DNA from: an uncultured Prevotellaceae bacterium
GTDB taxonomy: Bacteria; Bacteroidota; Bacteroidia; Bacteroidales; Bacteroidaceae
Direction of reading: 5' to 3'
Length of the DNA stretch: 38,267 nt
NCBI GenBank assembly: GCA_900313715.1
Contig: OMSH01000183.1
Span: 1-38,267, forward strand
A program made the translations under genes and the position numbers. Below, piece after piece: positions 12,163-36,389 of the stretch; within the stretch, counting starts at the first letter, position 1; each line of letters starts with the position of its first letter. The notes beneath the pieces were generated by a model. That model saw only the letters and a program-made list of their open reading frames with translations. It was not told the DNA's origin and searched no databases.

Positions 12163-12171
12163 AATCCATCA

Positions 12172-12759: not shown

Positions 12760-12776
12760 AATTACATCCCCTCCTA

Positions 12777-13430: not shown

Positions 13431-14428
13431 TTCTTCACACTGACAGCCCTACTGCTGAATCTTTGAGGTTTAACATACGTATTGATAAGGGGCACGAATG
13501 CATTCATAATGAAAATGGCAAACGACATACCTTCCGGATAGGACCCCCAGAAACGAATAACCATCGTGATGAGACCAATGCAAACACCATAAATCAGCTG
13601 TCCGCGATAGTTCATCGGAGAGGTCACATAATCTGTAGCCATGAAGATGGCACCCAGCATCAAACCACCACTAAGCAAGTGATACTCTGGCGATGGATAT
13701 ACCGTTGGATCTACCAGATACATAACACCGGCAAACACGAGCACCGTAGCAAGTATTGACACAGGGATGTGCCAAGTAATAATTCTTTTCCACAACATAT
13801 AGGCGCCACCAAGAAGCAATGCCAAAGCGCTGACCTCACCTAATGAACCACCTATATTATTACCTAACAACATGCCCAATGCATCTGGCAAATCGCCCAA
13901 AGCAGCCGGATTACCATTTACTGCTTGTTTCATCAATGACAGTGGTGTTGCTCCTGTTACAGCGTCGGTGTATGACATCAACTGTCCCGCCTGTGGCCAT
14001 GAGGTCATCTGCACCGGGAAAGAAATCAGCAGGAAGATACGCCCTGCCAGTGCTGGATTGAACGGGTTACAGCCCAAACCGCCAAACGACATCTTGCCCA
14101 CACCAATGGCAAACAGGGCACCAATTATGATAATCCATATCGGCAGGTTCGATGGCAGGTTAAACGCCAGCAATACGCCCGTGATGATGGCAGAACCATC
14201 AGTGATGGTGAGGCGTTCACGTTTCAAGATATACTTGCTGATGGCCCACTCGAAGAACACGCAGGCAGCTACCGATACAGCAGTAACCACCAATGCACCA
14301 ATGCCAAAGGCGATGAGTGACACCAGAAATGCAGGTATCAGTGCAATGAGCACACCATACATATTCTTCTGCACACTATCATTGGCATGATCGTGGGGCG
14401 AAAGTGATACTAATAACTTATTTTCCAT
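13427..14428 (-). CDS. rnfD: Rnf/Rsx subunit D
   Basis: FGGLGCNPFNPAL, DAVTGATPL (FMN-Thr), FMATDYVTSP. Confidence 0.96.
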   Translation of the reverse strand: MENKLLVSLSPHDHANDSVQKNMYGVLIALIPAFLVSLIAFGIGALVVTAVSVAACVFFEWAISKYILKRERLTITDGSAIITGVLLAFNLPSNLPIWIIIIGALFAIGVGKMSFGGLGCNPFNPALAGRIFLLISFPVQMTSWPQAGQLMSYTDAVTGATPLSLMKQAVNGNPAALGDLPDALGMLLGNNIGGSLGEVSALALLLGGAYMLWKRIITWHIPVSILATVLVFAGVMYLVDPTVYPSPEYHLLSGGLMLGAIFMATDYVTSPMNYRGQLIYGVCIGLITMVIRFWGSYPEGMSFAIFIMNAFVPLINTYVKPQRFSSRAVSVKK

Positions 14429-14434
14429 TTTAGA

Positions 14435-15772
14435 TTATTTTTTTGTGCTGCGGGCACGAATGATAGCTCCTACCCTTGTCTTGCCCAAGCTGATATAATC
14501 CAGCAACGGACGATTGGCAGGACAGGTGAACTGGCAAGCGCCGCAACTCAAGCAGTCCATAATGTCTTCTTTCTCTAATCTCTCGAATTCTGCATGCTCA
14601 GCTAACTGTGCCATGAGGTATGGCTCCAAGCCCATTGGACAGGCACTTACGCACTTGGCACAACGGATACAAGGCTGCGGTTCACCACGCTTGGCATCCT
14701 TCTTATTTAATATGGTGATTCCAGACGTACCCTTGGCGGTTGGCACCTCGGTGTTAACCAGTGCCTTACCCATCATAGGACCACCGCTGATAATCTTGCC
14801 TGTATCTTCAGGTATGCCTCCACAAGCATCAATAAGTTGTTGGATAGGTGTTCCAATGCGTGCCAAGAAATTACCAGGTTGTTTAACCGACTTGCCCGTA
14901 ACAGTCACCACGCGTTCAAACAACGGTTTATTCTTCTGAATGGCCTCATATACAGCAAAAGCGGTTCCCACATTCTGTACCAAGGCGCCAGTAGAAATAG
15001 GTAACGCTCCACTACCTACATACTTGTCAGTTATAGCCTGTATCAGCTGTTTCTCACCTCCTTGTGGATATTTCATCTTGAGTGGCACAATCTCGATGCC
15101 AGAAAAATCTTTGGCAGCTTTCTCTAAGGCTGCTATAGCATCTGGCTTATTGTTCTCCACGCCAATGTATGCCTTGTTCACACGCATAGATTTCATAAGG
15201 ATGCTCACTCCTACCATGATCTCAGGGGCATGTTCCAGCATCAAACGATGGTCAGCTGTAAGATATGGTTCACATTCAGCACCATTAATCACCACACACT
15301 CAGGTTTGAAAGCAGGAGGTGGAGAGAGTTTCACCTGTGTTGGGAAGCATGCGCCACCTAAACCGACAATACCCATCTCGGCCACTTTCTTGTTAATTTC
15401 TTCTGGAGTGAGTGTGCACTCCTTTACCAACGTGTCTGAACGATCAATGCTCTCAAGCCACTCATCCCCCTCCACATCAATGAAGATAGCAGGTTTAGAA
15501 TAGCCACTGGCATCGATAATGTTATCAATCTTTGAGACCTTTCCACTGACAGATGAGTGGATAGCAGCTGAGACGAAACCACCAGGCTCCGCAATCTTCT
15601 GTCCCACCTTCACCGTATCGCCCTTTGCCACAATAGGCTTGGCGGGTGCGCCAATGTGCTGTCCCAACAAGATGGCAACCTTGGCTGGAATGGCAGCCTT
15701 GACGATAGGCTGACCTGCTGAAAGTTTATTTCCGTGAGGATGAACTCCTCCGATTGAAAATGTCTTCAACAT
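14435..15772 (-). CDS. rnfC: Rnf/Rsx subunit C
   Basis: QHIGAPA, GLGGACFPT, NGAECEPYLTADHRLM, two 4Fe-4S motifs. Confidence 0.97.
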   Translation of the reverse strand: MLKTFSIGGVHPHGNKLSAGQPIVKAAIPAKVAILLGQHIGAPAKPIVAKGDTVKVGQKIAEPGGFVSAAIHSSVSGKVSKIDNIIDASGYSKPAIFIDVEGDEWLESIDRSDTLVKECTLTPEEINKKVAEMGIVGLGGACFPTQVKLSPPPAFKPECVVINGAECEPYLTADHRLMLEHAPEIMVGVSILMKSMRVNKAYIGVENNKPDAIAALEKAAKDFSGIEIVPLKMKYPQGGEKQLIQAITDKYVGSGALPISTGALVQNVGTAFAVYEAIQKNKPLFERVVTVTGKSVKQPGNFLARIGTPIQQLIDACGGIPEDTGKIISGGPMMGKALVNTEVPTAKGTSGITILNKKDAKRGEPQPCIRCAKCVSACPMGLEPYLMAQLAEHAEFERLEKEDIMDCLSCGACQFTCPANRPLLDYISLGKTRVGAIIRARSTKK

Positions 15773-15799
15773 AATATTATTGTTCTTTATTTCTCTGAA

Positions 15800-17203
15800 T
15801 TATAATAATGTAGATGCAATCTTCTCAACTACAGCTACAGCCTCTTCTTGCGTCTTGGCAGCTCGCTTGATGGCCACCAAACCTGTGGTCTTAACAGGTA
15901 CTATCGGCGTAGTATCTACTACTGCCGCATCGGCTTTAACAGGGTGCTTGGCTGCATTTGCCAATGCCTGGGCTGCAATCTTTGCTACCACATCTACCTT
16001 GGGGTGAGCAGCAATGTTCACCAACTCAACAGCAGGAGCAGCGGTCTTTGCCACAGCTGGTTGCTCTACTGGTGCAGGAGCTGCTTCAGCCTTAGGTGCT
16101 TCGGCAGGCGCCTTAGGACCGTTCTTCAGCAAGTCGGCAATCTTAGCCATTACCTCGTCACCTCCTACAGAGCAAGACTTATCTCCTATTCCACCGTCTT
16201 TTACGATAGCTGCAGCAAAGGCAGGGCAATCGTCGAAACCGCAGGCACCACAGTTGGCTTGTGGTAACAGTGACACAATGGATGCAGCACTTGGCATAGC
16301 CACAGGAGCAGTTGACTGAACGGCTTCAGCAGGCTTAGCTACTGGCTTGTCGGCTTCAGCAGCTGGAGCAGCCGGTTTAGCTGGTTTTGGTGGGAAGTTC
16401 AAGTCGATAATGGCGTGTGTAGGACAAACTTCGACACACTTACGGCATGACTTGCACTTATTATAATCAATGTATGCCAGATTGTTTTCTACGGTGATGG
16501 CCCCAAACGGACAAGTCTTTTCGCATTTGCCACAGCCTATACAACCAACGGTACATGCTTTACGAGTGAGAGCTCCTTTATCTTTATTGACACAACGCAC
16601 ATATACACGGCGGTTCTTCACACCTTTCTTGCGCAGCTCTATAATTCCCTTAGGACAAGCCTTAGAGCAAGCTCCACAGGCTGTACATTTTTCATCATCA
16701 ACCTCAGGCAAACCTGTCTCTGGGTTAATGTGGATGGCATCAAACTTACAGGCCATGGTGCAGTCACCATAGCCCAGACAGCCATAGCTACAACTTGTTT
16801 CACCACCATAAAGCGCAGCTGCAATAGCACAGCTCTTCACACCGTCATACCGGTTGACGCGGGGACGGTTGGCACAGGTACCATTACAACGTACCACAGC
16901 CACCATGGGGTCTTTAGCATCAGCCACAAGTCCCATCACGGCAGCTACTTTCTCCATCACAGGCTGACCTCCGACAGGACAGGATTTACCTTCCAAAGAG
17001 CCAGCTTTCACGATGGCACTTGCCAAACCGCTACAACCAGGATAACCGCAACCGCCACAGTTGGCCTGAGGCAAAACCTCGGCTATCTTTGCGATACGCG
17101 GGTCTTCGTGCACAGCAAACTTCTTAGAAGCCACATAAAGCACCAGTGCTGCCACCAACGCTATAACTCCTATTGAGATTACTGCTATCAGAATTACATT
17201 CAT
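15800..17203 (-). CDS. rnfB: Rnf/Rsx subunit B with a C-terminal extension carrying a second Fe-S domain
   Basis: N-terminal TM, LPQANCGGCGYPGC, polyferredoxin motifs, then a second LPQANCGACGFDDC. Confidence 0.94.
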   Translation of the reverse strand: MNVILIAVISIGVIALVAALVLYVASKKFAVHEDPRIAKIAEVLPQANCGGCGYPGCSGLASAIVKAGSLEGKSCPVGGQPVMEKVAAVMGLVADAKDPMVAVVRCNGTCANRPRVNRYDGVKSCAIAAALYGGETSCSYGCLGYGDCTMACKFDAIHINPETGLPEVDDEKCTACGACSKACPKGIIELRKKGVKNRRVYVRCVNKDKGALTRKACTVGCIGCGKCEKTCPFGAITVENNLAYIDYNKCKSCRKCVEVCPTHAIIDLNFPPKPAKPAAPAAEADKPVAKPAEAVQSTAPVAMPSAASIVSLLPQANCGACGFDDCPAFAAAIVKDGGIGDKSCSVGGDEVMAKIADLLKNGPKAPAEAPKAEAAPAPVEQPAVAKTAAPAVELVNIAAHPKVDVVAKIAAQALANAAKHPVKADAAVVDTTPIVPVKTTGLVAIKRAAKTQEEAVAVVEKIASTLL

Positions 17204-17246
17204 AAAATTAGTTAGTTTTATTAAGTTGTTGATTATATTCGTTTTA

Positions 17247-17678
17247 CTAATTCTTTTTCGAAATTGTGAACCTGAAGGTCTTCTTCATTTTGTCCTTGCC
17301 GAAGTAGTAAAGCAACAGATAGTAGATAGCCACACATGCTAAAGAATACAGTGCTACCGACAGCTCGTTATCGTTGCCCCACCATTTTGACAGACCTATC
17401 ACCAATACCATAAGAATAATCAATGGCAACAAGTAACCATACCATACAGCCAAGCGGCTCATACTGGTAGAACCCATTATCCATACTTCATCACCCACAC
17501 GGTATTGACTAGCTTCTTTGTCATACACATCAATAAGATGCTCTTTAGATTCCGCCGATGTACAGTGATTTTTAATACTGCACGACGAGCAGGATGTGGT
17601 CTGCACTATTTTCACTTGCAAGAAATTCTTTTCAATTTTCTGCACTAATCCACTGTGCTTCACAACATCTTCTTTCAT
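17247..17678 (-). CDS. rseC: RseC/MucC family (SoxR-reducing system) membrane protein
   Basis: TSCSSCSIKNHC, VGDEV, two C-terminal TM helices; first gene of the rnf operon. Confidence 0.85.
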   Translation of the reverse strand: MKEDVVKHSGLVQKIEKNFLQVKIVQTTSCSSCSIKNHCTSAESKEHLIDVYDKEASQYRVGDEVWIMGSTSMSRLAVWYGYLLPLIILMVLVIGLSKWWGNDNELSVALYSLACVAIYYLLLYYFGKDKMKKTFRFTISKKN

Positions 17679-22828: not shown

Positions 22829-23872
22829 CTATATCTTGGTAAGTTTCTGTAATTGTTTCTTTCCTATATCAATTAACTCGTTGTTGCGCTGACGGATACC
22901 CTCAAAAAATTGCTCATTTATCTGACGAATACCATTGATCACTTCCTGTGCCAGGTCTAATACCGAGTTGTTCTTGCTATCGTCGGCAGGGACTATCACC
23001 TGCAGACCTGCATGATGTATCTTGACTTTCAGATTGGCACCCATATTCACAGGATCGCCGTCATAGTGCACTACTCCAGGCTTCTCACGACGTATGTTGA
23101 TGGTCTTACAGCGGAAAGTCTTGATATGGCTATTCTGGTCTATCGTCTTGGTAAACAACTGCAATGCCAACGATGGCACGTCCAATGGTGTAAATGGATT
23201 AAGGATGGTAACATCCAGCAAACCATCATTAAGAGTGGCCTTGGGGGCAATATAGGCATTGTTTCCATATTGGGCCGCATTGCCGCAGGCAATGAGAAAC
23301 GCCTGATACGTCTCTGTCTCATTGCCATCAACGGTCACTTTATAGGTTTCTGGCTTATAATTCAGTGAAGCATTGAGCGATTGTTCAATATACGTATTTA
23401 GGCCTCGCTTCCCAGCTTCAGCAAACTTCAAGCTTACGAAAGCATCGAACCCCACCCCACAGGTACAGAAAAACTTGCGACGATTAATGGTACCGTAGTC
23501 AATGCTTTCCACATGTCCCTCGTTAATCACCTCCAACGCCTTTTGAGGCTGCATACTGATTTGCATATGGCGAGCCAAACCATTTCCTGAACCACAAGGA
23601 ATGATACCCAATGCAGTTGATGTATGTGTCAATGCACGAGCCACTTCGTTCACTGTACCATCACCACCAATGGCCACCACGGCAAAATGTCCCTCTTTGG
23701 CACACTGTGCAGCAATCTCTTCTGCATGACCCGCATATTGGGTATATTGAATCTGAAACGTATATTGATCTATATCCAGCTGTTCATTGATCAAAGCAAT
23801 AATCTGCTCCTTTTCCTGAGTACCGGATATAGGATTGACGACAAAGGTAATATGTTTTTTTTCTTTTTCCAT
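22829..23872 (-). CDS. Diacylglycerol/lipid kinase family protein (YegS/DAGK-like)
   Basis: VNPISG, GGDGTVNEV, IPCGSGNGLAR, YGNN, DGLLDV, HYDGD. Confidence 0.93.
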   Translation of the reverse strand: MEKEKKHITFVVNPISGTQEKEQIIALINEQLDIDQYTFQIQYTQYAGHAEEIAAQCAKEGHFAVVAIGGDGTVNEVARALTHTSTALGIIPCGSGNGLARHMQISMQPQKALEVINEGHVESIDYGTINRRKFFCTCGVGFDAFVSLKFAEAGKRGLNTYIEQSLNASLNYKPETYKVTVDGNETETYQAFLIACGNAAQYGNNAYIAPKATLNDGLLDVTILNPFTPLDVPSLALQLFTKTIDQNSHIKTFRCKTINIRREKPGVVHYDGDPVNMGANLKVKIHHAGLQVIVPADDSKNNSVLDLAQEVINGIRQINEQFFEGIRQRNNELIDIGKKQLQKLTKI

Positions 23873-23892: not shown

Positions 23893-26262
23893 TTAGAACT
23901 TAAACGCTACATCTGCCTTGATCCATCGACCTTGCTGCAGCAAGGCTCCATTCGAGTTCATACCGCCTTGATAATACTTCAGGTTAAACAAATTATGGAT
24001 ATTCACGCCCAGTTCCAAACGTCCAATCTTATAGTTAGCGCCTGCATCCACCAACACACGTCCGGCAACATCAAATTCCCTCATAGCGTTTAATTGGTTC
24101 CAATGGGCAATAAAACCTGACTGACCACTGTACGTGGTAATATGGGTATGAAGTTTTAAGTTCTTAACCATTTCCCAAGCCAAAACTGTATTGGTAATAA
24201 AATTAGGCATGTAGAGAATCCTATGAGGATGCAATGTTGTGGAATATTCAGCATCATCCGATCTCATCACCTCCATAGAAAAGTTGGCACTGAACCTCTT
24301 GCTCTTATACGAAGAGCTGAGTTCCAAACCGTATGTTGAATATGGAGTTGAATTCACATGTAAGAATCCATTCGCATAGATCAGGTCATCTGAATGATTG
24401 AAAAATCCGTTCAGTTCCACCATCAAACCAGGTACAGGGTTTACCAATTGGAATGTCAGCTGCCATGATTTCAGTTTCTCTGGCAGCAAATCTGTTGACG
24501 CCCTCAACAAATCATTGGTTTTCCTGTAAAGATAAGGAGCATCAACGAACGACCTTGAATAACTCAACTTAACATTCCATTTGGGTTGCAGGAAAATTAA
24601 TGCCACACGTGGTGAAAACTCATGGATGATCTTATTGTTATATTGTTTTTTATAGTCATATCTTAATCCGGCGCTCAATATCAGGTTTCCCCAGATATGC
24701 TTCAATTGGGCAAAGGCATCAATGCTATGTTCTTTGCCTAAATTACCTCTAAGGTATTGCGACATATCAGCCAACACTTGGTTATAACTATGCCCCAATA
24801 CATAACGGACATCCAACAGTTCATAGTAGTCATACTCCGTACCGGCCGTTATCAAACCACGATGATTATCACCCAGCTTATAGGATAAATCACCTTTAAA
24901 CTGGATGCCTACGGTGCGGTCCTGTCCATCAAGATAGTGATAAATACCATTATATAAACTTAAGATACTATCTACATTAACTCCTGGTATATTGGGCAAA
25001 CCAATAAACTCACTAAGGTGTTCAGCCTTTTCGTCAGTCACCACATTATACCTCATCATGTCGCTTTCATCATATTGGAGTTTTCCTCCGAGAGATAAGT
25101 TCCTCCTGGTCCAGGTATAAGCAACATCAAGATGATGAGAACGCGTGGATGTACCAGGACGCCTGCCATTGAAGGTTGTATAATTGCCATATTCATACGG
25201 AGAAGCCGTATATCTGTAGGACAATGGTGGAATAAACTGAGAGAAATGTGTATTGTACAAAAGAGAAAGGCCTTTCCATTTTAAAGACAAGCCCAGGTCG
25301 TAGGTCGGCAGATTACCTATTCCACCAAGCGTTATATCACCTTCTTTCAGCATCAAGCCTGTATCTTGAAGGGGCATAAAACGCTGTTGTCCCTTAGCCT
25401 TATATATATTTGCCCATACCAATACATCCAAGTCGAAATAACGCTTTCCAAACAAGAAATCACCGCTAATCTGTCCGTAGTTACCCAAGCTGCCCTTCAC
25501 CTTGACGCCATCCACATCAGCACCATTCTTGGTAATAATATTCACTACGGCCGACAAAGCCACACCACCATAAAGTGATGAAGCAGGTCCACGCAACACC
25601 TCTATCTGCTTTACCTTCTCTAAGCTCATACTGAAGTCAGGACTTGCCGTATTGGTAGTATAGCTGTTCAATCGATGACCGTCTAAGAGGAATAGAATCT
25701 TCTCCTGGGATGAGCTGTACATCGAACGCATCGAAATGTTGAGATCTTCGTTGCAATCTACATCCGTCATGCCTGGCACGAATGCCAACAGCGCTTCCTT
25801 AATGTTCCTGGCTCCACTGTTGATGATCATCTCTTCGGTAATCAAGGTTACAGGCACAGGCGACTCATTGAGATTCTCAGCCTGACTTGATGCAGTGGTA
25901 ATAGTAGCACCCATACCGCTCTTCATCTTTTCCACCAGGTCTATGAATCGCTGGGGGTCTTCAGAAGTAGTAGTATAATAAGGATTTTCCTGTAAGAGCA
26001 AAGATACATAGCTTTCGGCATTAGCATCGTTATCCAATCCCAAGTTGGCGAGAGCCAATAACCTATAGGCGCCTTGCTTTGAAGTACCCTTGAACAGATT
26101 AATGTTTTTCGTTAACAAATCATCCACATATTCCAGTCTTCCAATGGAATACGCATTCTCAGCATCGTTAAAGATAGAAAGCTGTTGGTCTGTGTCAACT
26201 TGTGCATGAAGCTGCGACATCATGCACACACACATTATTATATAAATAGCCAGTCTTTTCAT
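23893..26262 (-). CDS. TonB-dependent receptor with an N-terminal helical (TPR-like) extension
   Basis: Signal MKRLAIY...LHAQ (ATG 26262 overlaps the kinase stop as ATGA); plug ESPVPVTLIT...LLDGHRLN...IEVLRGPASSLYG...VVNIITK; SAGLRYD, NIHNLFN, terminal Phe. Confidence 0.9.
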   Translation of the reverse strand: MKRLAIYIIMCVCMMSQLHAQVDTDQQLSIFNDAENAYSIGRLEYVDDLLTKNINLFKGTSKQGAYRLLALANLGLDNDANAESYVSLLLQENPYYTTTSEDPQRFIDLVEKMKSGMGATITTASSQAENLNESPVPVTLITEEMIINSGARNIKEALLAFVPGMTDVDCNEDLNISMRSMYSSSQEKILFLLDGHRLNSYTTNTASPDFSMSLEKVKQIEVLRGPASSLYGGVALSAVVNIITKNGADVDGVKVKGSLGNYGQISGDFLFGKRYFDLDVLVWANIYKAKGQQRFMPLQDTGLMLKEGDITLGGIGNLPTYDLGLSLKWKGLSLLYNTHFSQFIPPLSYRYTASPYEYGNYTTFNGRRPGTSTRSHHLDVAYTWTRRNLSLGGKLQYDESDMMRYNVVTDEKAEHLSEFIGLPNIPGVNVDSILSLYNGIYHYLDGQDRTVGIQFKGDLSYKLGDNHRGLITAGTEYDYYELLDVRYVLGHSYNQVLADMSQYLRGNLGKEHSIDAFAQLKHIWGNLILSAGLRYDYKKQYNNKIIHEFSPRVALIFLQPKWNVKLSYSRSFVDAPYLYRKTNDLLRASTDLLPEKLKSWQLTFQLVNPVPGLMVELNGFFNHSDDLIYANGFLHVNSTPYSTYGLELSSSYKSKRFSANFSMEVMRSDDAEYSTTLHPHRILYMPNFITNTVLAWEMVKNLKLHTHITTYSGQSGFIAHWNQLNAMREFDVAGRVLVDAGANYKIGRLELGVNIHNLFNLKYYQGGMNSNGALLQQGRWIKADVAFKF

Positions 26263-27089
26263 TTCTTTGCTGGTATAGTAAATGTGAAACAAGCATACTC
26301 ACCTTCCTTTGAGTCCAAGTCTATACGTCCGTGATGCCTGTTCACAATAATATCATACGTAATGGCCATTCCTAATCCTGTACCCTGCCCGGCAGGTTTG
26401 GTGGTAAAGAAATTCTCATAGATATGTTTCTTCACTTCTTCGCTCATGCCTTCGCCATTATCTTTTAAAGTAACCACCACATCATTGCCGTCACTTTTAA
26501 CACTAACCTCTATTGTTGGAACATAGTCAGCAGGAGCATATTGTGATTTCTTCCATACAGCATAGCATGCATTGTTCACCACATTCAGAATAGCCCTGTT
26601 AAAGTCTTGTGGAATTATCTGAACCATAGGCATATTCTCTTGATAATCCTCATGAATGCTGATATTGAAACCCTTGTAATTAGCACGCATGGCATGATAC
26701 GACAACCACACATACTCTTTTACAGAACGGCAAATATCAGTAGGAATAAACTCTCCTTCCTTTCCTCTAGACATCATTAAAATGCCCCTGATGATACTGA
26801 TGGCCCGCTCACCATGCTCTACGATTTTGTTCATGTTTTCTTGCAAGTCGGCCACGATGTCATCCAATTCCTCACGGTCGGCCTCGTCTATCTTGTCTTC
26901 GTTATCTTCAACGATATCATTAAGATCTTTCAATAATTTGAAAGACATCTTGCTGAAATTGATGACAAAATTCAGGGGATTCTGAATCTCATGGGCAATG
27001 CCGGCACTCAACATTCCCAACGATGCCAGCTTTTCCTGGTCTTTTAGCTGTTGTCTCAGCGTTTCCAATTCTTGATTCTGCGTATCCAT
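26259..27089 (-). CDS. Stand-alone cytoplasmic histidine kinase (HisKA + HATPase_c) with no sensor or TM segment
   Basis: EKLASLGMLSAGIAHEIQNPLNF (H-box), LNVVNNA (N-box), DNGEGM (G1), FFTTK (F), GTGLGM (G2); only about 18 aa precede the H-box helix. Confidence 0.93.
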   Translation of the reverse strand: MDTQNQELETLRQQLKDQEKLASLGMLSAGIAHEIQNPLNFVINFSKMSFKLLKDLNDIVEDNEDKIDEADREELDDIVADLQENMNKIVEHGERAISIIRGILMMSRGKEGEFIPTDICRSVKEYVWLSYHAMRANYKGFNISIHEDYQENMPMVQIIPQDFNRAILNVVNNACYAVWKKSQYAPADYVPTIEVSVKSDGNDVVVTLKDNGEGMSEEVKKHIYENFFTTKPAGQGTGLGMAITYDIIVNRHHGRIDLDSKEGEYACFTFTIPAKK

Positions 27090-27093
27090 ATCA

Positions 27094-29982
27094 TCATTGT
27101 TTTAATAAAGGAATCTCTATAACAAACTCGGCAAATTCGTCTTTTACCGATTCCACTCGTATATTACCACCATGATTCTGAATAATTTCATGGCTCAGGT
27201 ACAATCCTACACCAGACGCCTCACCAGTGGTCTTGGTGGTAAAGAATGGGTCGAATATCTTGTCAATAATCGTCTGCTCAATACCCACACCATTATCGTG
27301 CACCGTCAGTTTCACCTTATCCTCCAAACGCTCCACTTTCAGCACAGCTTCAGGCTGGAATTGAACACGTTGCGACTTCTTAACCAAAGAATAAATGCTG
27401 TTGCCCAGAAAACTCATAATGGATTTACTCAGTTGCTCAGAATTTCCCATCATATGCAAAGAGTCATAGGGGCAATCCAGTTTAGTAACGATGTGGCACT
27501 CTTTTATATCCTTCTCGTAATACTTGTTCATCATCTCAAAATTGAGGTTCAGCAGTTCAACCAGATTCATTTCCTGCATGCCACCCGACCTGTCTTTAAG
27601 GATTTCCTCCATCGCCTTGAGGGTTCGAGTGGTACTCAGTCCGTGCTGCTCTACCTTCTCCAAGTTTTGTGACAACATCTCAAGCACATCCATCGTGTCC
27701 TCAAAGTTCTCTTGATCCATGTGGTCCTCTTCATCCTCAATATTGGCCTTCAAGTCTTTAATCAAGCCGCTCGACAACTTCGAGAAGTTGTTGATGTAGT
27801 TCATCGGGTTCAGAATACGGTCAATCAAACCCTGGGTCAGTTTACCAGCTGTAGCCATCTTCTCCTGACGAATCAACTGTTTCTGGGCAGCTTCCAAATC
27901 ATTCAATGCTTTCTGCAAGCTGGCAGATTTTTCCTCAATCTCATCTTTCTGCTTGACAATCTCATCTCTTTGCTTCACCACCTCAGCTGTACGTTCCTGC
28001 ACTATACCTTCCAATTTCAACTTTTCCCTCTCCAATCGGCGGGTACGCCAACGGGCAACAGCCATCATCAACAAGACCAACAAGAAGACATATACCACTC
28101 CCATATACCATGTTAAATATATTGGAGATTTGATGCGGAAATGCAATGGTTCTGCTTCCCACAATTTTCCCTTGGCATCTAATGCCTGTACCACCAGATT
28201 GTAGCTTCCGTAAGAAAGGTTGACAAACTCAATTGTCTGGTTCTCCGACCAAGTAGTCCAGCTGTTATTATTCAGCTTATATCTATATAATGTCTGTCCT
28301 ACCAACGATTCAGAATGCAATGCATACGTAATGGTCAGATGTCTTTCTGTACTGGGCAAATTACGAAGGGTTTCAGGCGCTTTGTCGAATCCAGCCCAAA
28401 CCAGACTATCATTACTAATTCTTACAGTACAGATGTCAAGTTCGTTATCAGCAGTCAGCAACGGGTCAGGATGAGTGATATCCAACACCACCAGTCCGTA
28501 GTTGCCACCAATCCACAACAAGCCGTCTTTCAATACCATGGAACGCACGGTATAGTCCTTCAATGGAGAGAGTATTTCATCATATTCATCCATCCGTCTG
28601 CCGTCTTTGTAAGCATAGAGATTTTTACTCTCTTTATCTGTCAGCCAAAGCACTCCATTGTCATCGGCAAACGAGAAACCAGGGTAAGCGAATGGCTCTT
28701 CGTCATCCACCGTTACCACCGTCACGTTTCCGTCTTGATAGATAAAGGTTGCCAATTCCTCATTCCTGGCGTATTCTGTATTGGCAAAGAGCTTTCCGTT
28801 GAAGGTTGTTTTTCCCACCTCACCATATAGGTTACGCAGCCATAATGTGCCCTCTTGGTCAACCTTCATGTCCATTACGCTTTCCATGCTCAGCACCTTA
28901 GTATGTTCAAATCTGGTGTTGAAATAAACACCGTCAATCTCACCGCTATAGAAACCATCATTGCCGAGCATGATGGATGTAGTACTGGATGTGGTCAAGT
29001 GTTCTACTTTGTTGCCATTGATACGATACACACCATTAGAGGTTGCTGCCAGTAATGCATCACCACGTCTGTTTAACTGCCAACAAGCCAGGTCAAATCC
29101 AGGTATTTGTACGAAACGAGTGCCCTCTTGCTTGAATAAGCCTGCCATGGTACCCACATACAGCTGATTATTCAACACATACATTGACAGCACCTCACCC
29201 CTCAATCCTTCTGTAGCTGTATATCTGGTATATGACGAAGGCACCATTATGGAAAACACACCATTGTCAGTAGCTCCCCACAACATACCCTTACCATCAT
29301 AGGACATTCGGTTTATATTATTGTTTATGAGTCCGTTTTCTTCAGTGAAGCTAAATAACACATTTCCTTTGCCATCAGTAAAGTTAATACCCTTACCTTC
29401 TGCTGCCACCGCATAGAAATTATCCTCCAGCTGCAATCTTTGGGTATGATCTATTGAATACGACTGAAGTCCATCTTGTTTTTCCTGTGGAATAGAAACC
29501 GCGCCATCCACTACTTTTGTCCACTTGTCATTCTCATCCACACGATATACCACGTTATCCACCGTCGAGAAAAACAGTACACCGTTCGCCTCCCATATTC
29601 TGTTAACTTCACTCCTTATATTAGCGATTTCTTCAAGAGGATGAAACGTGAGGTCTTTCACCTCATTAAGTTCCAAGTAGCCCATATAGTTGTAGCCACC
29701 ACTCCAAATGGTACCATCACTGTCTTTATAAAGAGCGGTTACACGTGTAATACCTGGTGTATGCTTGATATCCCATGTAGCTTGGTCATAAATCAGCAAA
29801 CCTTCAAAATTGGCCACATATACCACCCCCTCTTCTGGTTCTGCCAGAATATCAAAATTGCGGTTATGGGCATCATATTCTTCTGGCAGATAATTGCGAA
29901 AGAAAGGCAATCCCTGTGCAGAGACAGCCGTTGTGCCCGCTACACAAGCGATGATAAACAATATGTAATGTATAAATTTCAT
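27094..29982 (-). CDS. Membrane sensor (periplasmic beta-propeller + Y_Y_Y + TM + coiled coil + HK-like module) lacking the phosphoacceptor His
   Basis: Signal peptide, LWGATDNG-type propeller repeats, YRYKL...LSYGSYNLVVQA, TM, LEGIVQERT coil; H-box reads GLIDRILNP; N, G1, F and G2 boxes present. Confidence 0.9.
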   Translation of the reverse strand: MKFIHYILFIIACVAGTTAVSAQGLPFFRNYLPEEYDAHNRNFDILAEPEEGVVYVANFEGLLIYDQATWDIKHTPGITRVTALYKDSDGTIWSGGYNYMGYLELNEVKDLTFHPLEEIANIRSEVNRIWEANGVLFFSTVDNVVYRVDENDKWTKVVDGAVSIPQEKQDGLQSYSIDHTQRLQLEDNFYAVAAEGKGINFTDGKGNVLFSFTEENGLINNNINRMSYDGKGMLWGATDNGVFSIMVPSSYTRYTATEGLRGEVLSMYVLNNQLYVGTMAGLFKQEGTRFVQIPGFDLACWQLNRRGDALLAATSNGVYRINGNKVEHLTTSSTTSIMLGNDGFYSGEIDGVYFNTRFEHTKVLSMESVMDMKVDQEGTLWLRNLYGEVGKTTFNGKLFANTEYARNEELATFIYQDGNVTVVTVDDEEPFAYPGFSFADDNGVLWLTDKESKNLYAYKDGRRMDEYDEILSPLKDYTVRSMVLKDGLLWIGGNYGLVVLDITHPDPLLTADNELDICTVRISNDSLVWAGFDKAPETLRNLPSTERHLTITYALHSESLVGQTLYRYKLNNNSWTTWSENQTIEFVNLSYGSYNLVVQALDAKGKLWEAEPLHFRIKSPIYLTWYMGVVYVFLLVLLMMAVARWRTRRLEREKLKLEGIVQERTAEVVKQRDEIVKQKDEIEEKSASLQKALNDLEAAQKQLIRQEKMATAGKLTQGLIDRILNPMNYINNFSKLSSGLIKDLKANIEDEEDHMDQENFEDTMDVLEMLSQNLEKVEQHGLSTTRTLKAMEEILKDRSGGMQEMNLVELLNLNFEMMNKYYEKDIKECHIVTKLDCPYDSLHMMGNSEQLSKSIMSFLGNSIYSLVKKSQRVQFQPEAVLKVERLEDKVKLTVHDNGVGIEQTIIDKIFDPFFTTKTTGEASGVGLYLSHEIIQNHGGNIRVESVKDEFAEFVIEIPLLKQ

Positions 29983-29987
29983 ATCTC

Positions 29988-31562
29988 TTATCTGTCAATA
30001 AATGTTTCGTAAGGAATATTGGTACCAATATAATAGTTCCATTCCTCCTGAGTGAAATTCCTGGTCAGCGACTCCTTGATTGTTGTGGCCATCAATGGCA
30101 CAGAGATAACTGTCTGAGTCAGGTTTCCCCTTTGATCGCCAGTCCACATAAACTCGCCTCCCATCATCATCATGGATGTAATCCAATTGCCGGAAGAAAA
30201 CACATTAACAGGTTCCACCTTCTCTTTCTGCCAGTCCCAAATCTTAGCCGTTCCGTCATAGCTCGTAGATAAAAGCAGTCTTGGATTCTGCGGATGATTT
30301 GACAATTGTGAAATCTTCGACCGATGTCCCACTAAACGGGTTATTTGCTCATTTTCGTCCACCATATAGATGGTTCCGTCGTTAGTACCATAGAAGACTG
30401 TATTCCAGTTTCTACCTCTGGAAACAGCTGTTACCCCTTTTATTGGTATTTTTTTATTCGTCAGTTTCGTAACGTTTTCATCAGTTATTTTCACTTCATC
30501 AGATTCATCAAACAAAACCAGCTGACCTTTATCAGATGAGCTGAGGAGGATGGGCTTATCCACCAGAATCTTTCTTTCTATTTCCAGATTTCCCAATGCT
30601 ATCACAAACAGACCGTTCTCTGCCACAATCACCACATCCATCTGATTCAAACTATAAATGCGCATAGGATGTATTGCTTCATCTATGTGCCGTATCACCG
30701 GCTCTGCCTTATTGGGATTGAACACCAGAAGGTCTCCCGTGCGACTGATGGCATAAATCATTCCATTTGAAAAATACCAAATATCGCGAATGTCATACTG
30801 ACTGTTCTGGAACAAATAGGTGGTCTCCAATTGTCCATTCTTCAATTCATGCTGGGCAATCGAACCATAGTCACTGATAGAAAGGAACTTGGTTCTTTCT
30901 TGGTTAGTGAAATAAAGCTTTTTCACGGCTCCACGGTGGGCAGACCATGTTCTGGTACTCTTACTGATGAGTGATAAAGCCTCATAGATAGACGGTTGAT
31001 AGACATCTCCCTTATAACGTTCTGTAAACAGATAAGATGTATAGGCCAGCAACAGAGCCAAGTCATGGTTGCCGGTATTCTCTTGTGTCACGGCCTCAGA
31101 ACCTAAGTTACGAGCCAACGCCACATAGCTCAACGTATCAGCCACCTTACGGGCATATTCAGCCTCTTCACGCTGCTGCTCAGCCAGGATTCTCTGACTT
31201 TCAGCTTGCTGTGATGCGACAACCGCACGCTGTTCCGATTCCAGCGCATTGCGCTCTGCCTCTAACGCATTGCGTCGTTCAATTTCCGAACGGTTTCTCA
31301 TCTCATTAGCAATGCGTGTTTGCACCACGGCCTCCTCGCGCTGTTTGTCAGATACTTCTTTCTGTTGGTAGGCAATTTCCTCCATTTGCGTACTGATACT
31401 ACGCAAAACAGCACTTCGTTTCTCTTTCTCGGTGAGGTCTTTCACTTGAACCTCCAAATCCCGATTTTTCTTTGAAACGTAGTAAGTCTGGCTGCCAAAA
31501 GAAAAACATAAGACACCCAGTACCGCCAAGGCTCCGTATTTTATGTATTTGTTTAAGTCCAA
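29988..31562 (-). CDS. Membrane-anchored coiled-coil + WD40 beta-propeller protein (TTG start)
   Basis: N-terminal hydrophobic segment, about 120 aa E/Q/R/A-rich coil, AHRGAVKKL, GHRSKISQL...STSYDGTAKIWDW, C-terminal RNFTQEEWNYYIG. Confidence 0.85.
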   Translation of the reverse strand: MDLNKYIKYGALAVLGVLCFSFGSQTYYVSKKNRDLEVQVKDLTEKEKRSAVLRSISTQMEEIAYQQKEVSDKQREEAVVQTRIANEMRNRSEIERRNALEAERNALESEQRAVVASQQAESQRILAEQQREEAEYARKVADTLSYVALARNLGSEAVTQENTGNHDLALLLAYTSYLFTERYKGDVYQPSIYEALSLISKSTRTWSAHRGAVKKLYFTNQERTKFLSISDYGSIAQHELKNGQLETTYLFQNSQYDIRDIWYFSNGMIYAISRTGDLLVFNPNKAEPVIRHIDEAIHPMRIYSLNQMDVVIVAENGLFVIALGNLEIERKILVDKPILLSSSDKGQLVLFDESDEVKITDENVTKLTNKKIPIKGVTAVSRGRNWNTVFYGTNDGTIYMVDENEQITRLVGHRSKISQLSNHPQNPRLLLSTSYDGTAKIWDWQKEKVEPVNVFSSGNWITSMMMMGGEFMWTGDQRGNLTQTVISVPLMATTIKESLTRNFTQEEWNYYIGTNIPYETFIDR

Positions 31563-31564
31563 TA

Positions 31565-32731
31565 TTATAATCTCTTAATAGCTAACATAGTAATATCATC
31601 GCTTTGTTCGGCTTCGCCCACAAATTCTCTCACCCTGCTCAGCACTTTCTCGATGGATTCTTTGCAGTTAAGACCTACACATTCATTCAGTGCCAGTTCC
31701 AGTCGTTCGTCAGTAAACTCCTGGTTATCCACATTGCAAGCTTCATCCACTCCGTCGGTGTACATCACCAGCATGTCACCCTCCTCCAGTTTCTCACTTT
31801 CGTCGTTGAAATCCATGAATTCAAACACACCCAGCATAGTACTTTCACTGTTAGGCAACCGTTCCAGTTTACCGTTCTTTCTCAAAATATAAGGAGGATT
31901 ATGACCGGCATTGCAGAAGTTAATATCTCCTGTCTTTACATTATAGATGGCATAAAACAGTGTGACAAACATGTTGTCAACCGACTCCTTGCAAAGCATC
32001 TTGTTGGTAATGGTCAGGCATTGTGCAGCCGTATAATCTTGCTGGAAGCCACAAATATGCACCATCGTACGGCTCACAGCCATGAAGATGGCAGCAGGAA
32101 TACCCTTACCGCTCACGTCAGCCATCACCAGACCTATCCTTTCATCATCTATCTTGAAATAGTCATAGAAGTCACCACCAATATCTTTGGCAGGTTTCAT
32201 GGATTGCCACAGGTCGAACTTGCCTACACCCTCATCGTAATCCGGCATTTTCTTAGGCAAGATGGCTTGCTGAATCTCAGCCGCTACCGACAAATCGCTC
32301 TTAATCATCACCAGCTGTGAATGTTCTTTTTGCGACTGTTTCACATAATTAATCTGATCAATGGCCTTCTCAATGGTGATGCTCAAGTCATCCAGGTCAA
32401 TAGGCTTTGTAGCAAAGTCGAATGCACCGTTGTTCATGGCCGTACGGATATTTCCCATATCGCCGTATGCAGACACCATGATGCATTTCAGGGCAGGATT
32501 TCTCAACTCGTTAATCTTGGTCAGCAACGTCAATCCATCCATTTCAGGCATATTGATATCACTCAGTATAATGCTAATGTCGGGTTGTTCCAGCAACACC
32601 TTCAGTGCTTCAATGCCATTGTGTGCAAAAAAGAACTCATACTCGCCCTTACGGATCTTTCTTCTAAAATATTGCGTCAACAGCATCTCGAGATCCAACT
32701 CGTCGTCAACACTTAAAATCTTTACTGCCAT
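31565..32731 (-). CDS. Receiver domain + PP2C (SpoIIE/RsbU-type) Ser/Thr phosphatase
   Basis: REC: VDDE, SDINMP, VSAYG, TKP. PP2C: GGDFYD, ADVSGKG, NAGHNPP, YTDGVDEA, SDDIT. Confidence 0.95.
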   Translation of the reverse strand: MAVKILSVDDELDLEMLLTQYFRRKIRKGEYEFFFAHNGIEALKVLLEQPDISIILSDINMPEMDGLTLLTKINELRNPALKCIMVSAYGDMGNIRTAMNNGAFDFATKPIDLDDLSITIEKAIDQINYVKQSQKEHSQLVMIKSDLSVAAEIQQAILPKKMPDYDEGVGKFDLWQSMKPAKDIGGDFYDYFKIDDERIGLVMADVSGKGIPAAIFMAVSRTMVHICGFQQDYTAAQCLTITNKMLCKESVDNMFVTLFYAIYNVKTGDINFCNAGHNPPYILRKNGKLERLPNSESTMLGVFEFMDFNDESEKLEEGDMLVMYTDGVDEACNVDNQEFTDERLELALNECVGLNCKESIEKVLSRVREFVGEAEQSDDITMLAIKRL

Positions 32732-32756
32732 AATCTACATTTTTTAATTTATTAGG

Positions 32757-32784
32757 CAAATATAAGCATTTTTTGTTAACTTTG
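32757..32784. promoter_or_regulatory. Back-to-back divergent -7 promoter elements
   Basis: Minus TATATTTG at 32757-32764 and plus TAACTTTG at 32777-32784; neither has a consensus -33 element. Confidence 0.55.
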
Positions 32785-32810
32785 CGGCGAAATATTAAAA
32801 AAAAGTTAGA

Positions 32811-34439
32811 ATGAATAATCTTAAGACCATATTTGAGAGCCGTTATACCTGGATTGAGGGGTTTATGCGTAATGTTAGACGTTATGGCGGCAAATTGGCG
32901 ATGATCAATCCTGACGATGGACGCCAATGGACTTACACCGAAATGAACGAGGAATGTAACAGGCTTTCCAATGCATTGATTGCCGATGGTTTGCAGAAAG
33001 CCGATGTTATTATGCTGCAGCTCATTAACTGTCCGGAATTTGCTTTTGGCTACCTGGCTGCACACAAGAGCCACGCAGTTTGCTGTCCCGTTAATTTCAG
33101 ATTGAAACCAGGTGAGCTCGCGTTCAACATTGACGATTCCAAACCTATGGCCATCATCTTTAACGAGGTGAACAAAGCCGATATATTAGAAGCACTTAAA
33201 ATTACCAAGCACCAGCCCAAGAAGTTGATTGTGGTAGGTGGTGCTTCTGACGGCAAGGTTACGTCATATGCTGATTACGTACGAGATGCTTCTGTGAAAG
33301 AGCCTGTATTCGACTACGATTACAATATCTACGACGAGACTACCCGTCTTTACACATCTGGCACCACAGGTTTCCCCAAGGCAGTGCCACTGACCAGCAT
33401 CAACGAGGTGTTATCAGCACACGATGTGATGATTCACTTCCCTATGAATTACAAGGATGTGACCATGAACACCACCCCTTGGTTCCATCGCGGAGGCTTG
33501 CACTGTGCAGGTCCCTGCCCTGCTTTCTATGCCGGAGCCACCATTGTAATCATGGGCAAGTTCAATGCCGAGCTTACACTGAAATATGTTGACCACTACA
33601 AGATTACGTTTATTGTGGGCGTGCCTACCGTATTGGAGGAACTGGCCGACAATCAGGAACGTAAAGGATATAATATCAGTACGTTGAAGGGTATCGTTAC
33701 CATGGGTAGCCCGCTGGAGCGTTCTGCTTGTATCCGCTACCAGCACGTACTGACGCCTAACATATTTAACGGCTATGGTACCACCGAGACGTTCTGGAAC
33801 ACTTTCCTGCGTCCGTTCGACCTGCCCGAGAATGCAGGTACAGCTGGCGCTTCGTGTGTGGATGACGATGTGCGTGTGGTAAAAATATATGAGGATCACC
33901 GTGCTACTCCTGACGATTTGGCAGCAATGGACGGCATTGAGGTAGGTGAAGTCATCATCTGTTCACCCGCCAAATCACCTTATTCTTATGCCAACAATGT
34001 GGGTGAAACCGACCGTAAATATGCTAATGGCTTTATTTACACCAACGATTTAGCTACTTGGGATAAGAATCAGTTTATCACCATTGTAGGTCGCAAGGAT
34101 GATATGATTATTTCTTCTGGTGAGAACATCTATCCTACCGAGGTGGAGGCAGTGTTGAACATGCACCCCAAGGTAAAAGATTGCATCGTTACTTCCGTAC
34201 CCGACAAGATGCGTGGCCAGATTGTGACCGCCTATGTCGTGCGTGACGATATGAGTCTGACACCCGAAGAGCTGGACAGTTATTGCAAGGAAAGTCCTAA
34301 TATCTCCAACTTCAAGCGTCCCCGCTTCTATCGTTTTGTGGCGCAGATACCATTCAATGCCACTGGCAAGAAGCTGCACGTCAAGATAAAGGAAACTGCC
34401 CTTGAGGACCTCAAGAACGGTTTGCTCTACCGAGTTTGA
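32811..34439 (+). CDS. Acyl-CoA synthetase / class I adenylate-forming enzyme
   Basis: LYTSGTTGFPKAV, NGYGTTET, YTNDLA, GRKDDMIISSGENIYPTEVE, NATGKK. Confidence 0.93.
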   Translation: MNNLKTIFESRYTWIEGFMRNVRRYGGKLAMINPDDGRQWTYTEMNEECNRLSNALIADGLQKADVIMLQLINCPEFAFGYLAAHKSHAVCCPVNFRLKPGELAFNIDDSKPMAIIFNEVNKADILEALKITKHQPKKLIVVGGASDGKVTSYADYVRDASVKEPVFDYDYNIYDETTRLYTSGTTGFPKAVPLTSINEVLSAHDVMIHFPMNYKDVTMNTTPWFHRGGLHCAGPCPAFYAGATIVIMGKFNAELTLKYVDHYKITFIVGVPTVLEELADNQERKGYNISTLKGIVTMGSPLERSACIRYQHVLTPNIFNGYGTTETFWNTFLRPFDLPENAGTAGASCVDDDVRVVKIYEDHRATPDDLAAMDGIEVGEVIICSPAKSPYSYANNVGETDRKYANGFIYTNDLATWDKNQFITIVGRKDDMIISSGENIYPTEVEAVLNMHPKVKDCIVTSVPDKMRGQIVTAYVVRDDMSLTPEELDSYCKESPNISNFKRPRFYRFVAQIPFNATGKKLHVKIKETALEDLKNGLLYRV

Positions 34440-35016: not shown

Positions 35017-35922
35017 TTAATTTTTTATTTCTCTATAGTAGTGAGCTCGGTATTGTACTGGGCTCATTCCTTTTAACCTCAGTTTTATTCTTTTATTGTT
35101 ATACCAATCAATATATCTTTTTAGTGCTCTCTGAAAATCCTCTATACTTTCAAACTTGTCAGCATATAAGAGTTCGTTCTTCATTAAGCCAAAAAAGTTC
35201 TCCATCATAGCATTATCCAGGCAGTTGCCTTTGCGTGACATGCTCTGAGTGATGTCATGGCCTTTAAGCATCCTCTGGTATATTCTATGTTGATAATGCC
35301 AGCCTTGATCCGAGTGCAGAGTGAGACCATCCAGTTGCGGATACTTCTTCAAAGCCTTCTTGAGCATAGATGTGACCATCTTCAAATTTGGACTGGTAGA
35401 AATGGTGTAAGATATGATACCTCCATCAAACATATCTAATATGGGTGACAAGTACAGCTTTCTGTCGTTTATGCATACTTGTGTAACATCAGTAGCCCAT
35501 TTCTGATTGGGTCTGTTTGCGCAGAAATCACGTTCCAGCACATTGGGAGCAATCCTGCCTATCTCCCCTTTATAGGAGTGATAGTGCCGTTTCTTGGTCT
35601 TTGCCTTAAGTCCAATCTGGTTCATCAGCTTCTGCACTGTTTTGTGATTAATAATTATATCTTCATTGCGCAATTCCATACAGATTCTCCTGTACCCATA
35701 GCGCCCATGATTATTGTCATAAATTTGCTTTATACGTTCCCTGATTCCATCATATCCATCGCTGTCGTCCATATGCGACATATGGTAATAGAATACAGAA
35801 CGAGCCATCTTTATTCTATGCAGCATAAACTGCAGAGGGTGTCCTTCACGCCTTAGTTCTTCGATGGCTCGTGCCCAATCTCTCGTAGTCGGGCATTCCT
35901 TTCCTCGACTAAGGCTCTCACT
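35017..35922 (-). CDS. IS3 transposase OrfB (DDE), reached by -1 frameshift
   Basis: YGYRRI, WATDVT, HSDQGWHY, DNAMMENFFG; the -1 frame is open back to the A7G slippery site at 35921-35928. Confidence 0.92.
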   Translation of the reverse strand, partial: SESLSRGKECPTTRDWARAIEELRREGHPLQFMLHRIKMARSVFYYHMSHMDDSDGYDGIRERIKQIYDNNHGRYGYRRICMELRNEDIIINHKTVQKLMNQIGLKAKTKKRHYHSYKGEIGRIAPNVLERDFCANRPNQKWATDVTQVCINDRKLYLSPILDMFDGGIISYTISTSPNLKMVTSMLKKALKKYPQLDGLTLHSDQGWHYQHRIYQRMLKGHDITQSMSRKGNCLDNAMMENFFGLMKNELLYADKFESIEDFQRALKRYIDWYNNKRIKLRLKGMSPVQYRAHYYREIKN

Positions 35923-36389
35923 TTTTTTAGCAGAGCATTCTCTGTCTTGAGCTCTTGCACTTCCTTGCGAAGCCTTTCAAGCTCTGTGAGTGGCTTACTA
36001 TTTTTCATTGGCCTTCCCATACATGGTGGTCTGCCTCGTTTTTTTGTGCTATTCAAAGCTGCCAAGCCCCCTGTCCTGTACTGCCGTAGCCATGTTGATA
36101 TACATTGAGGGCTGGCCTCATATTTGAGCGAAGCTGCGCACAAAGATAGATTGTTTTCTTCAATATCAATAATGATTTTCTTTTTTAATGAAAAATCTGT
36201 CTTGATTCTTTGGTTCTGCTTCAGCCCTGCTGTCCCATACATTAGGTATTTTGCCCTTAATACTTTAAGCCGATGGTGATTGATTCCATACTTATTACAG
36301 ATTGAATCAATGGATTTACCCTCTTCCAGCAGACGCATGTATTTTAGTAAATCTGCATACCCATGTATCTTGTATTTTCTTGTTGACAT
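35853..36389 (-). CDS. IS3 transposase OrfA (HTH + coiled coil)
   Basis: Two HTH-like segments, RGRP, ELERLRKEVQELKTENALLKK. Confidence 0.9.
   Translation of the reverse strand: MSTRKYKIHGYADLLKYMRLLEEGKSIDSICNKYGINHHRLKVLRAKYLMYGTAGLKQNQRIKTDFSLKKKIIIDIEENNLSLCAASLKYEASPQCISTWLRQYRTGGLAALNSTKKRGRPPCMGRPMKNSKPLTELERLRKEVQELKTENALLKKVRALVEERNARLREIGHEPSKN

Follow-up and report, generated by a model that had tools for sequence, protein, structure and literature searches.

Gene organization and distribution of the operon

Five adjacent genes, proposed to encode a signalling relay that leads from outer membrane to cytoplasm, were examined in contig OMSH01000183.1 (assembly GCA_900313715.1) of an uncultured Prevotellaceae bacterium. 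The whole contig of 38,267 nucleotides (nt), labelled G000:C300, is referred to as the window; the host genome (G000) comprises 2.2 Mb at a completeness of 74.75%. As an initial annotation of this DNA had described, the genes are intact, lie co-directionally on the minus strand and are separated by gaps of 2, 5, 4 and -4 nt, and the domain make-up which it had assigned to the five proteins was recovered using Pfam. Their GC content is 0.41-0.44 and that of the genome 0.442. The features of the operon are listed below (aa, amino acids; TM, transmembrane).

32731-31565 (-): REC-PP2C response regulator, 388 aa, with PF00072 and PF07228
31562-29988 (-): stalk protein (anchor, coil and WD40), 524 aa, TTG start, PF00400
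29982-27094 (-): inner-membrane sensor, 962 aa, with signal peptide, Reg_prop, Y_Y_Y, TM segment at residues 619-647 and HATPase_c
27817..27822 (-): codons for Asp721-Arg722 of the sensor, replacing the canonical His-Glu
27089-26259 (-): soluble histidine kinase, 276 aa, with HisKA, HATPase_c and His33, without TM segment or sensor
26262-23893 (-): TonB-dependent receptor, 789 aa, with Plug; ATG at 26262, overlapping the kinase gene by 4 nt
25903..26196 (-): N-domain of the receptor (residues 23-120), TPR-like and periplasmic, the predicted partner of the WD40 propeller

Among the 29 window proteins scanned, no Pfam match was found to SusD, FecR, extracytoplasmic function (ECF) sigma factors, AraC or STAS, in agreement with the claim that the operon is devoid of them. 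No glycan-active enzyme was detected beside the receptor by Pfam, and the SusC/SusD arrangement of polysaccharide-utilisation loci was likewise lacking.

Parts of the stretch were present in 13 runs recorded as RNA, while three listed RNA runs contained next to none of its words. Contigs were examined from four RNA runs belonging to four studies. The REC-PP2C/stalk junction was bridged by contigs of runs X4, X8 and X10, the stalk/sensor junction by a contig of X4, and the sensor/kinase/receptor junctions by X1; contigs of X1 and X10 (two studies) end at 32735, 4 nt ahead of the first ATG. Bridging of all four junctions is compatible with the proposed co-transcription of the operon, although strand, level and a single transcript cannot be derived from contigs.

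Of 400 genomes of the family, 23 gave a match to the soluble kinase (E <=1e-60). Stalk, sensor and kinase genes were together in all 23 loci and the receptor gene in 22. The REC-PP2C gene was inside the fetched stretch in 19; in the other four it is on the same contig, some 10.5 kb upstream. Two loci (L082, L083) are rearranged, with the kinase and REC-PP2C genes divergent from the remainder. L040, a locus labelled as a Bacteroidaceae metagenome-assembled genome of goat-reticulum origin, carries the same genes, the proteins being 98-100% identical to those of the window. At the order level the kinase subfamily was found in 62 of 400 genomes (E <=1e-50), for part of which neighbourhoods were fetched. 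Co-occurrence in other genomes had been set beforehand as a check on the proposal, and the gene set was indeed recovered in these 23 genomes of the family and also from metagenomes; in this count, as in every other, related genomes are not independent of one another. A search with the single sensor protein over the genome collection returned only 2 loci and was too narrow for use. Identity to the window proteins was determined across 28 operon loci, and ranged over 81-94% for the receiver (in the 23 of 28 loci that hold it), 54-83% for the kinase, 52-80% for the plug, 45-74% for PP2C, 33-69% for the N-domain and 25-50% for the barrel. The five-gene set is conserved across many gut Bacteroidales and is not a chance arrangement. 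Carriers of the sensor family in culture include Prevotella sp. E2-28 (P0108) and Bacteroides gallinaceum (P0130).

The putative two-part kinase and the predicted receptor-stalk bridge

Hybrid two-component systems of Bacteroidetes have Reg_prop and Y_Y_Y periplasmic domains, one TM segment and a kinase core. All of these were found in the sensor, but the phospho-His, fused receiver and AraC output were not; the protein ends after HATPase_c, and the operon holds no SusC/SusD or glycoside hydrolase genes. The reported lack of the histidine was confirmed, since the sensor gave no HisKA match and Asp721-Arg722 aligned with His33-Glu34 of the soluble kinase. The two cores belong to the same kinase subfamily (30% identity). 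Asp-Arg was invariant in 30 of 30 aligned rows and in 120 of 120 listed homologues, and the 30 aligned rows were also invariant at the N-box Asn, at residues of the G1, F and G2 boxes, and at an Asn four places past the His position. His780, in the second helix of the sensor core, is likewise invariant. Nonsynonymous divergence from G010 was 0.14 for the His-less core and 0.11 for the true kinase, with synonymous divergence saturated.

Asp-Arg was read in 37 of 116 kinase-family rows from the fetched loci. In a quick tree that included the Asp-Arg columns, these rows together made up one side of a branch (99*); the partner kinases of the rows fell in two clades echoing its deep splits. The 37 rows are distributed over 36 loci, all with a short His kinase, and 31 of the 36 had been retrieved by means of that kinase. 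This bias is avoided when the His-less domain itself is the query. In 400 order genomes the soluble kinase was present at 8 of 8 non-self match loci; among 72 metagenome loci the motif occurred in 26, there was room downstream in 22, and the soluble kinase was the next gene in 21 of these 22. Propeller sensors of 1,250-1,280 aa in other families which keep the His were accompanied by a soluble kinase at 1 of 10 loci, whereas long propeller sensors with Asp-Arg were directly followed by one in 4 of 4. The sensor and the soluble kinase likely act as one two-part kinase. It would be a divided sensor kinase, with input and ATP site kept by the membrane subunit and the His by the soluble one, and the sensor may act through trans-phosphorylation of its partner, allostery or a regulated phosphatase activity.

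Other arrangements of the kinase subfamily were also recorded. A short form (L042 9085-13394, L044 7983-11846, L045 7796-11678, and L118) has an Asp-Arg pseudokinase with a membrane segment only, sometimes two in tandem, together with a soluble kinase and REC-PP2C; L044 and L045 also hold STAS and RsbW, and the form was seen in the human-gut-labelled contigs L117, L121 and L122. In L085-L089 and L096 (e.g. G337:C19 55001-90000), between 3 and about 8 kinases of this subfamily stand in tandem, every one of them with His, and the arrays end in a lone receiver and a related receiver-adenylate/guanylate cyclase fusion (Pfam, L086) rather than PP2C.

The stalk was modelled as a single long helix (residues 6-162), a helical clamp and a 7-blade WD40 propeller (pLDDT 87.7). 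Beyond the anchor the modelled helix extends for about 134 residues, or about 200 Å, long enough to cross the periplasm. The N-terminal signal anchor and its preceding basic residues are kept in relatives, and would therefore place the rest of the stalk in the periplasm. The protein corresponds to the C-terminal half of the nSTAND1-TM-coil-WD40 proteins of other families (about 1,030 aa), minus the NTPase: the PF20703 P-loop NTPase present in these relatives is absent from the 524-aa stalk, and no nSTAND1 match was obtained in the genome by tblastn. The nSTAND1 forms are followed by outer-membrane barrels, either small proteins of 340-360 aa or TonB-dependent receptors, which share one N-terminal domain with the receptor of the window. 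A fold search with the stalk returned generic 7-blade propellers (12-18% identity). In the ESM Atlas the matches to the stalk were confined to unnamed WD40 clusters of equal size, and all matches to the N-domain were under 0.9.

The receptor model (pLDDT 86.9) consists of a signal peptide, the N-domain, a TonB-box-like strand, a plug and a 22-strand-type barrel. It is of the FhuA/BtuB structural class, without a SusD partner and with the TonB box assigned by position only. Barrels of that class were also the matches in a fold search, and because they are only 12-17% identical the ligand is not readable from them. The N-domain is all-helical in the model and ends immediately ahead of the TonB-box-like strand; 11 of 43 N-domains matched TPR_2, and none of the 43 matched the STN signalling domain.

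For the complex of N-domain and WD40 propeller a prediction score of 0.87 was obtained, the best of 3 controls scoring 0.00; runs agreed in at least 93% of contacts, with partner pLDDT of at least 90. Of 157 solved complexes 116 attained the score mark, as did 2 of 215 mismatched pairs; both counts are rough for the alignments used here. Predicted contacts involve N-domain residues 39-44, 75, 77, 103-105 and 108, and on the propeller side include residues 232, 414-416, 435-437 and 460. The propeller interface columns were more conserved than the remainder (0.43 vs 0.33, p 0.02). No close solved relative was found for either chain, although the model could still draw on generic complexes of TPR and propeller domains. 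The prediction supports binding of the N-domain to the stalk propeller. An N-domain gene was found in 41 of 44 stalk loci, two of the three exceptions being at contig edges, and a stalk gene in 41 of 42 loci with an N-domain gene. In a draw of 300 genomes from the phylum, the N-domain was present in 8. The most conserved segment of the NTPase-less stalks, residues 52-80 (0.74 at 61-80 vs about 0.4 for the propeller), is probably the candidate contact with the sensor.

The barrel is exchanged between close relatives. Between L067 and L068 the N-domain and the kinase are 100% identical and the sensor is barely changed, with the plug at 76% and the barrel at 31%, and the two loci have different peptide synthetases. 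A barrel swap with constant N-domain and kinase fits specificity residing in the receptor. A peptide synthetase was the next gene for 15 of 44 receptors, and barrel clades track synthetase architecture. The barrel of the window belongs to a nine-member clade near the barrels linked to one-module synthetases; no member has an adjoining synthetase (L103 ends soon after the gene). No condensation domain was found in G000 (74.75% complete) or in the genome of L040, and a peptide synthetase was accordingly rejected as part of the system in G000. The receptor may therefore listen for a compound made by others, or bind an unrelated nutrient. In L069 (9837-17106) and L074 (9834-17113), two N-domain receptors with barrels 28% identical flank one single-module peptide synthetase.

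Putative output of the phosphatase and evaluation of the proposed relay

The phospho-acceptor Asp58 and the PP2C metal-binding motifs of the REC-PP2C protein are intact, and its closest solved relative is 3EQ2. A search for STAS and anti-sigma genes elsewhere in the genome, as the initial annotation had suggested, located both on contig C62, where a single run of genes holds RsbW, a permease of the SLC13 type and a STAS-only protein in which the conserved serine motif is present.

C62:10299-10601 and 12426-12857: STAS-only protein and RsbW-type kinase

An RsbW-type domain was present in 23 of 23 operon genomes as against 99 of 377 others (within genera p ~7e-5, the genomes again including kin). 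Within the fetched stretch, STAS was found in 10 and RsbW in 9 of the 28 operon loci. Two relatives encode STAS and RsbW inside the gene run; the order in L113 is REC-PP2C, STAS, RsbW, stalk, sensor, kinase, receptor, and L128 and the long-form L101 resemble it. The STAS protein is likely the substrate of REC-PP2C. Six ECF-sized sigma matches were found in the genome, none of them in the window and none on C62 or C300 (at 74.75% genome completeness). The final target may therefore be an unlinked ECF sigma factor, the permease or an enzyme; an SLC13/TrkA-C permease in particular may be the target of the STAS/RsbW switch.

Further arrangements of these genes were noted. In L075 and L080 the operon is flanked by a permease of the same family as in the C62 run, along with STAS and RsbW. 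Six loci (L028, L043, L063, L067, L068, L078) have a cluster inserted between the REC-PP2C and stalk genes, composed of an epimerase-family gene, STAS, isoamylase, a second STAS, RsbW and DJ-1/PfpI; the cluster is highly conserved, with the isoamylase at 77-94%. The wider partner-switch network comprises RsbW matches in 122 of 400 family genomes. Many of the family RsbW matches lie in frames of 600-830 aa, and the two inspected (L178, L180) are PP2C-RsbW fusions followed by STAS. A long form (L054 3366-18836, L055, L101, L033) contains an nSTAND1-stalk, an N-domain receptor, a propeller-GAF sensor, REC-PP2C and RsbW/STAS, together with either a 290-aa gene resembling formyltransferases or an HMGL-like gene, and a 1,000-aa membrane/HEAT protein. 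The 290-aa gene was considered as a binding protein and dropped, its only Pfam match being a weak one to formyltransferase.

We consider it fairly probable that these parts form a trans-envelope relay, in which the signal passes from receptor to stalk, two-part kinase, REC-PP2C and the STAS/RsbW switch. By analogy with FecA-type transducers, a small molecule binding the variable barrel would shift the plug and TonB box and the adjoining N-domain. The N-domain, predicted to rest on the propeller, would hand the signal to the stalk, which in the model spans the periplasm. Because the stalk has almost no cytoplasmic part, the signal would be passed sideways to the neighbouring sensor, probably via residues 52-80; this appears to be the weakest step. 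Conservation and gene pairing suggest that the His-less sensor heterodimerises with the soluble kinase, the sensor providing input and ATP site and the partner the His. By homology with RsbK-RsbY-RsbV-RsbW, and from co-occurrence, phosphate would then be transferred to Asp58, and active PP2C would dephosphorylate the STAS serine, opposing the RsbW-type kinase. The outer membrane-to-cytoplasm relay put forward in the initial annotation is thus supported in its gene anatomy, conservation and co-occurrence, in the presence of STAS and RsbW and in the predicted receptor-stalk contact, whereas phosphotransfer, the stalk-sensor contact and the STAS substrate are parts that we infer.

Several observations weigh against this relay. 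L064 keeps stalk and sensor without a receptor, and in L115 and the truncated L126 an Asp-Arg-type sensor is followed by the receptor without an adjoining soluble kinase. Parabacteroides-sized forms (366-384 aa; L042, L044, L045) have the phosphatase and the same kinase pair but no propeller, stalk or receptor, and therefore suggest that the cytoplasmic half works without the envelope half. The kinase tree was a quick one containing the very motif columns in question. A second PP2C in the genome (Cache-HAMP-SpoIIE, C49) could serve the same STAS protein. Conservation of the N-domain interface was not significant (p 0.10). In the phylum draw only 5 of 11 N-domain genes had a stalk gene directly upstream (<=1.5 kb), although both receptor-fused N-domain genes did.

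The receptor might only import its ligand, which would then be bound by the periplasmic propeller of the sensor, the stalk being a non-signalling tether. The periplasmic Reg_prop/Y_Y_Y part of the sensor is indeed complete, and this is the fold with which hybrid two-component systems bind their ligands; conservation of the plug is good (52-80%), as would be anticipated of a genuine transporter, and the predicted receptor-stalk contact suits a tether equally. We nevertheless regard this sequence of transport and sensing as unlikely, in view of the barrel exchange between L067 and L068, which fits receptor-borne specificity, and of the descent of the stalk from STAND switch proteins. Less likely again is an alarm, in which phage, bacteriocin or damage to the envelope would be detected by the receptor, as a sensor or a bait, and a stress programme would be set off through the relay. 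Such a role is suggested by the definition of nSTAND1 in predicted conflict systems (PMC8195603, available part), by long forms beside or fused to TIR/DUF4062 proteins, by the hypervariable barrels (25-50%), and by DJ-1/PfpI, isoamylase and epimerase genes clustered with STAS and RsbW in several loci. The form in the window, however, lacks an effector domain and no longer has the NTPase, and the correspondence of barrel type with adjoining synthetase architecture (15 of 44 receptors) points to a metabolite.

That the receptor-stalk and kinase-phosphatase units are functionally unlinked modules sharing one promoter seems to us very improbable. Each can be found alone, as the kinase pair with REC-PP2C in L042, L044 and L045 and as the stalk with N-domain barrels in L031, L032 and L036. 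Yet the envelope and kinase halves remain interleaved despite rearrangements, from Bacteroidaceae to free-living families (L050, L054, L055, L101), and the kinase-pair loci without the envelope half are also without the sensor propeller.

What is known of signalling by TonB-dependent receptors concerns mainly FecR/ECF sigma pairs; compared with that route, the relay favoured here has a different and testable bridge, with an interface predicted at residue level, and a different output. Like the receptor of the window, those of FecA-FecR-FecI, PupB-PupR and HasR-HasS combine a 22-strand plug barrel with a periplasmic N-domain by the TonB box. This N-domain attaches to the C-terminal, periplasmic portion of an inner-membrane protein that crosses the membrane once (PMC9249621, available part); for the window the corresponding contact is a prediction. 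The N-domain of the window differs in being helical and TPR-like with no STN, its putative partner is a 200-Å coil with a WD40 tip rather than FecR, and no ECF sigma factor is present at the locus; output would be through phosphorylation. A precedent for transfer from receptor to periplasmic protein to histidine kinase is PahS-PahP-PahK-PahR of Cycloclasticus, with three genes clustered. In the available part of that account (PMC10570129) PahP is a soluble ligand carrier that detaches, whereas the mediator of the window is membrane-anchored, and the regulator is GacA-like, in contrast to a PP2C phosphatase and a kinase split in two.

The output resembles that of RsbK-RsbY-RsbV-RsbW in Bacillus cereus, where a histidine kinase likewise acts through REC-PP2C on a STAS/RsbW switch (PMC12848376, available part). 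The corresponding components were found here, namely a REC-PP2C with intact Asp and metal motifs, also similar to the Pseudomonas RssB-type protein (3EQ2), and a genomic STAS-only serine protein with an RsbW-type kinase. The differences are the Gram-negative envelope input, the lack of a linked SigB-type sigma factor and the pseudokinase/soluble kinase pair. Control of a partner kinase by a kinase-like protein is documented for DivL-CckA, RcsD-RcsC (with RcsF-IgaA) and RetS-GacS, of which Rcs also relays from outer membrane to cytoplasm (PMC12189002, available part). Unlike DivL, RcsD and RetS, the His-less partner is here the only sensor, with its ATP site kept and an invariant Asp-Arg, and its active counterpart is no more than a soluble kinase core. 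The nSTAND1 (PF20703) TM-coil-WD40 proteins have homologous TM, coil, clamp and propeller, followed by a barrel with the same N-domain; the stalk differs in having no NTPase. Membrane-anchored or receptor-linked nSTAND1 forms are not described in the available part of PMC8195603.

The five-gene arrangement was not found described in the literature searched, which was mostly open-licence and excluded supplements, nor in the available parts of PMC8195603, PMC7159879 and PMC8256260, supplements aside; tables of the Aravind group could list such loci. The bridge and the kinase pair are apparently undescribed, within known signalling logic. More tentatively, the operon could represent a distinct class of TonB-dependent signalling, in which a STAND-derived TPR-WD40 bridge spanning the periplasm mechanically links a swappable barrel with a pseudokinase/kinase pair that heterodimerises obligately and with a phosphatase of the partner-switch kind; rumen Bacteroidales would thereby sense small nonribosomal peptides, with G000 as a synthetase-free listener. 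We hold this wider proposal to be possible but doubtful. Chemical signalling in the rumen is a possibility raised by the association of barrel type with small peptide synthetases. The carriers are abundant gut Bacteroidales, for which no study of partner-switching circuits was found, and a sensor with His replaced by Asp, a retained ATP site and a dedicated soluble partner offers a clean natural model for pseudokinase control of histidine kinases.

Flanking genes and other features of the window

The operon is flanked by the following features.

32732..32810: divergent intergenic region, 79 nt, with one TAnnTTTG box on each strand
32811..34439 (+): acyl-CoA ligase-like gene, divergent
22829..23872 (-): YegS/DAGK-type lipid kinase gene, 20 nt downstream of the receptor gene

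TAnnTTTG, which we take to be the Bacteroidetes -7 element, had 45 matches across the window, and the two intergenic boxes are for that reason weak promoter evidence. Scans for sigma-70 promoters (28 vs 28.2) and terminators (10 vs 8.2) were at chance level. The lipid kinase gene, overlooked in the initial annotation, was rejected as a core part of the operon, being the next gene for 3 of the 44 receptors compared, that of the window included; it is probably a neighbour by position. Beyond it are a tRNA-Asp and then a terminator-like hairpin. The acyl-CoA ligase-like gene is also upstream in L027 and L040, and an unrelated 25% homologue has the same position in L125; it is possibly a stand-in for the peptide synthetases of other loci.

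An IS3-family element (35017-36389, -) consists of a helix-turn-helix transposase open reading frame and an integrase-core open reading frame 26 nt apart, and RNA-library contigs from other copies accumulate there. A serine resolvase gene (9679-10362, +) stands alone behind genes for a LysM protein and for a barrel of the outer membrane; no further mobile genes were apparent by Pfam. The window also contains a complete and ordinary Rnf electron-transport operon (11584-17678, -), preceded by an RseC/MucC gene.

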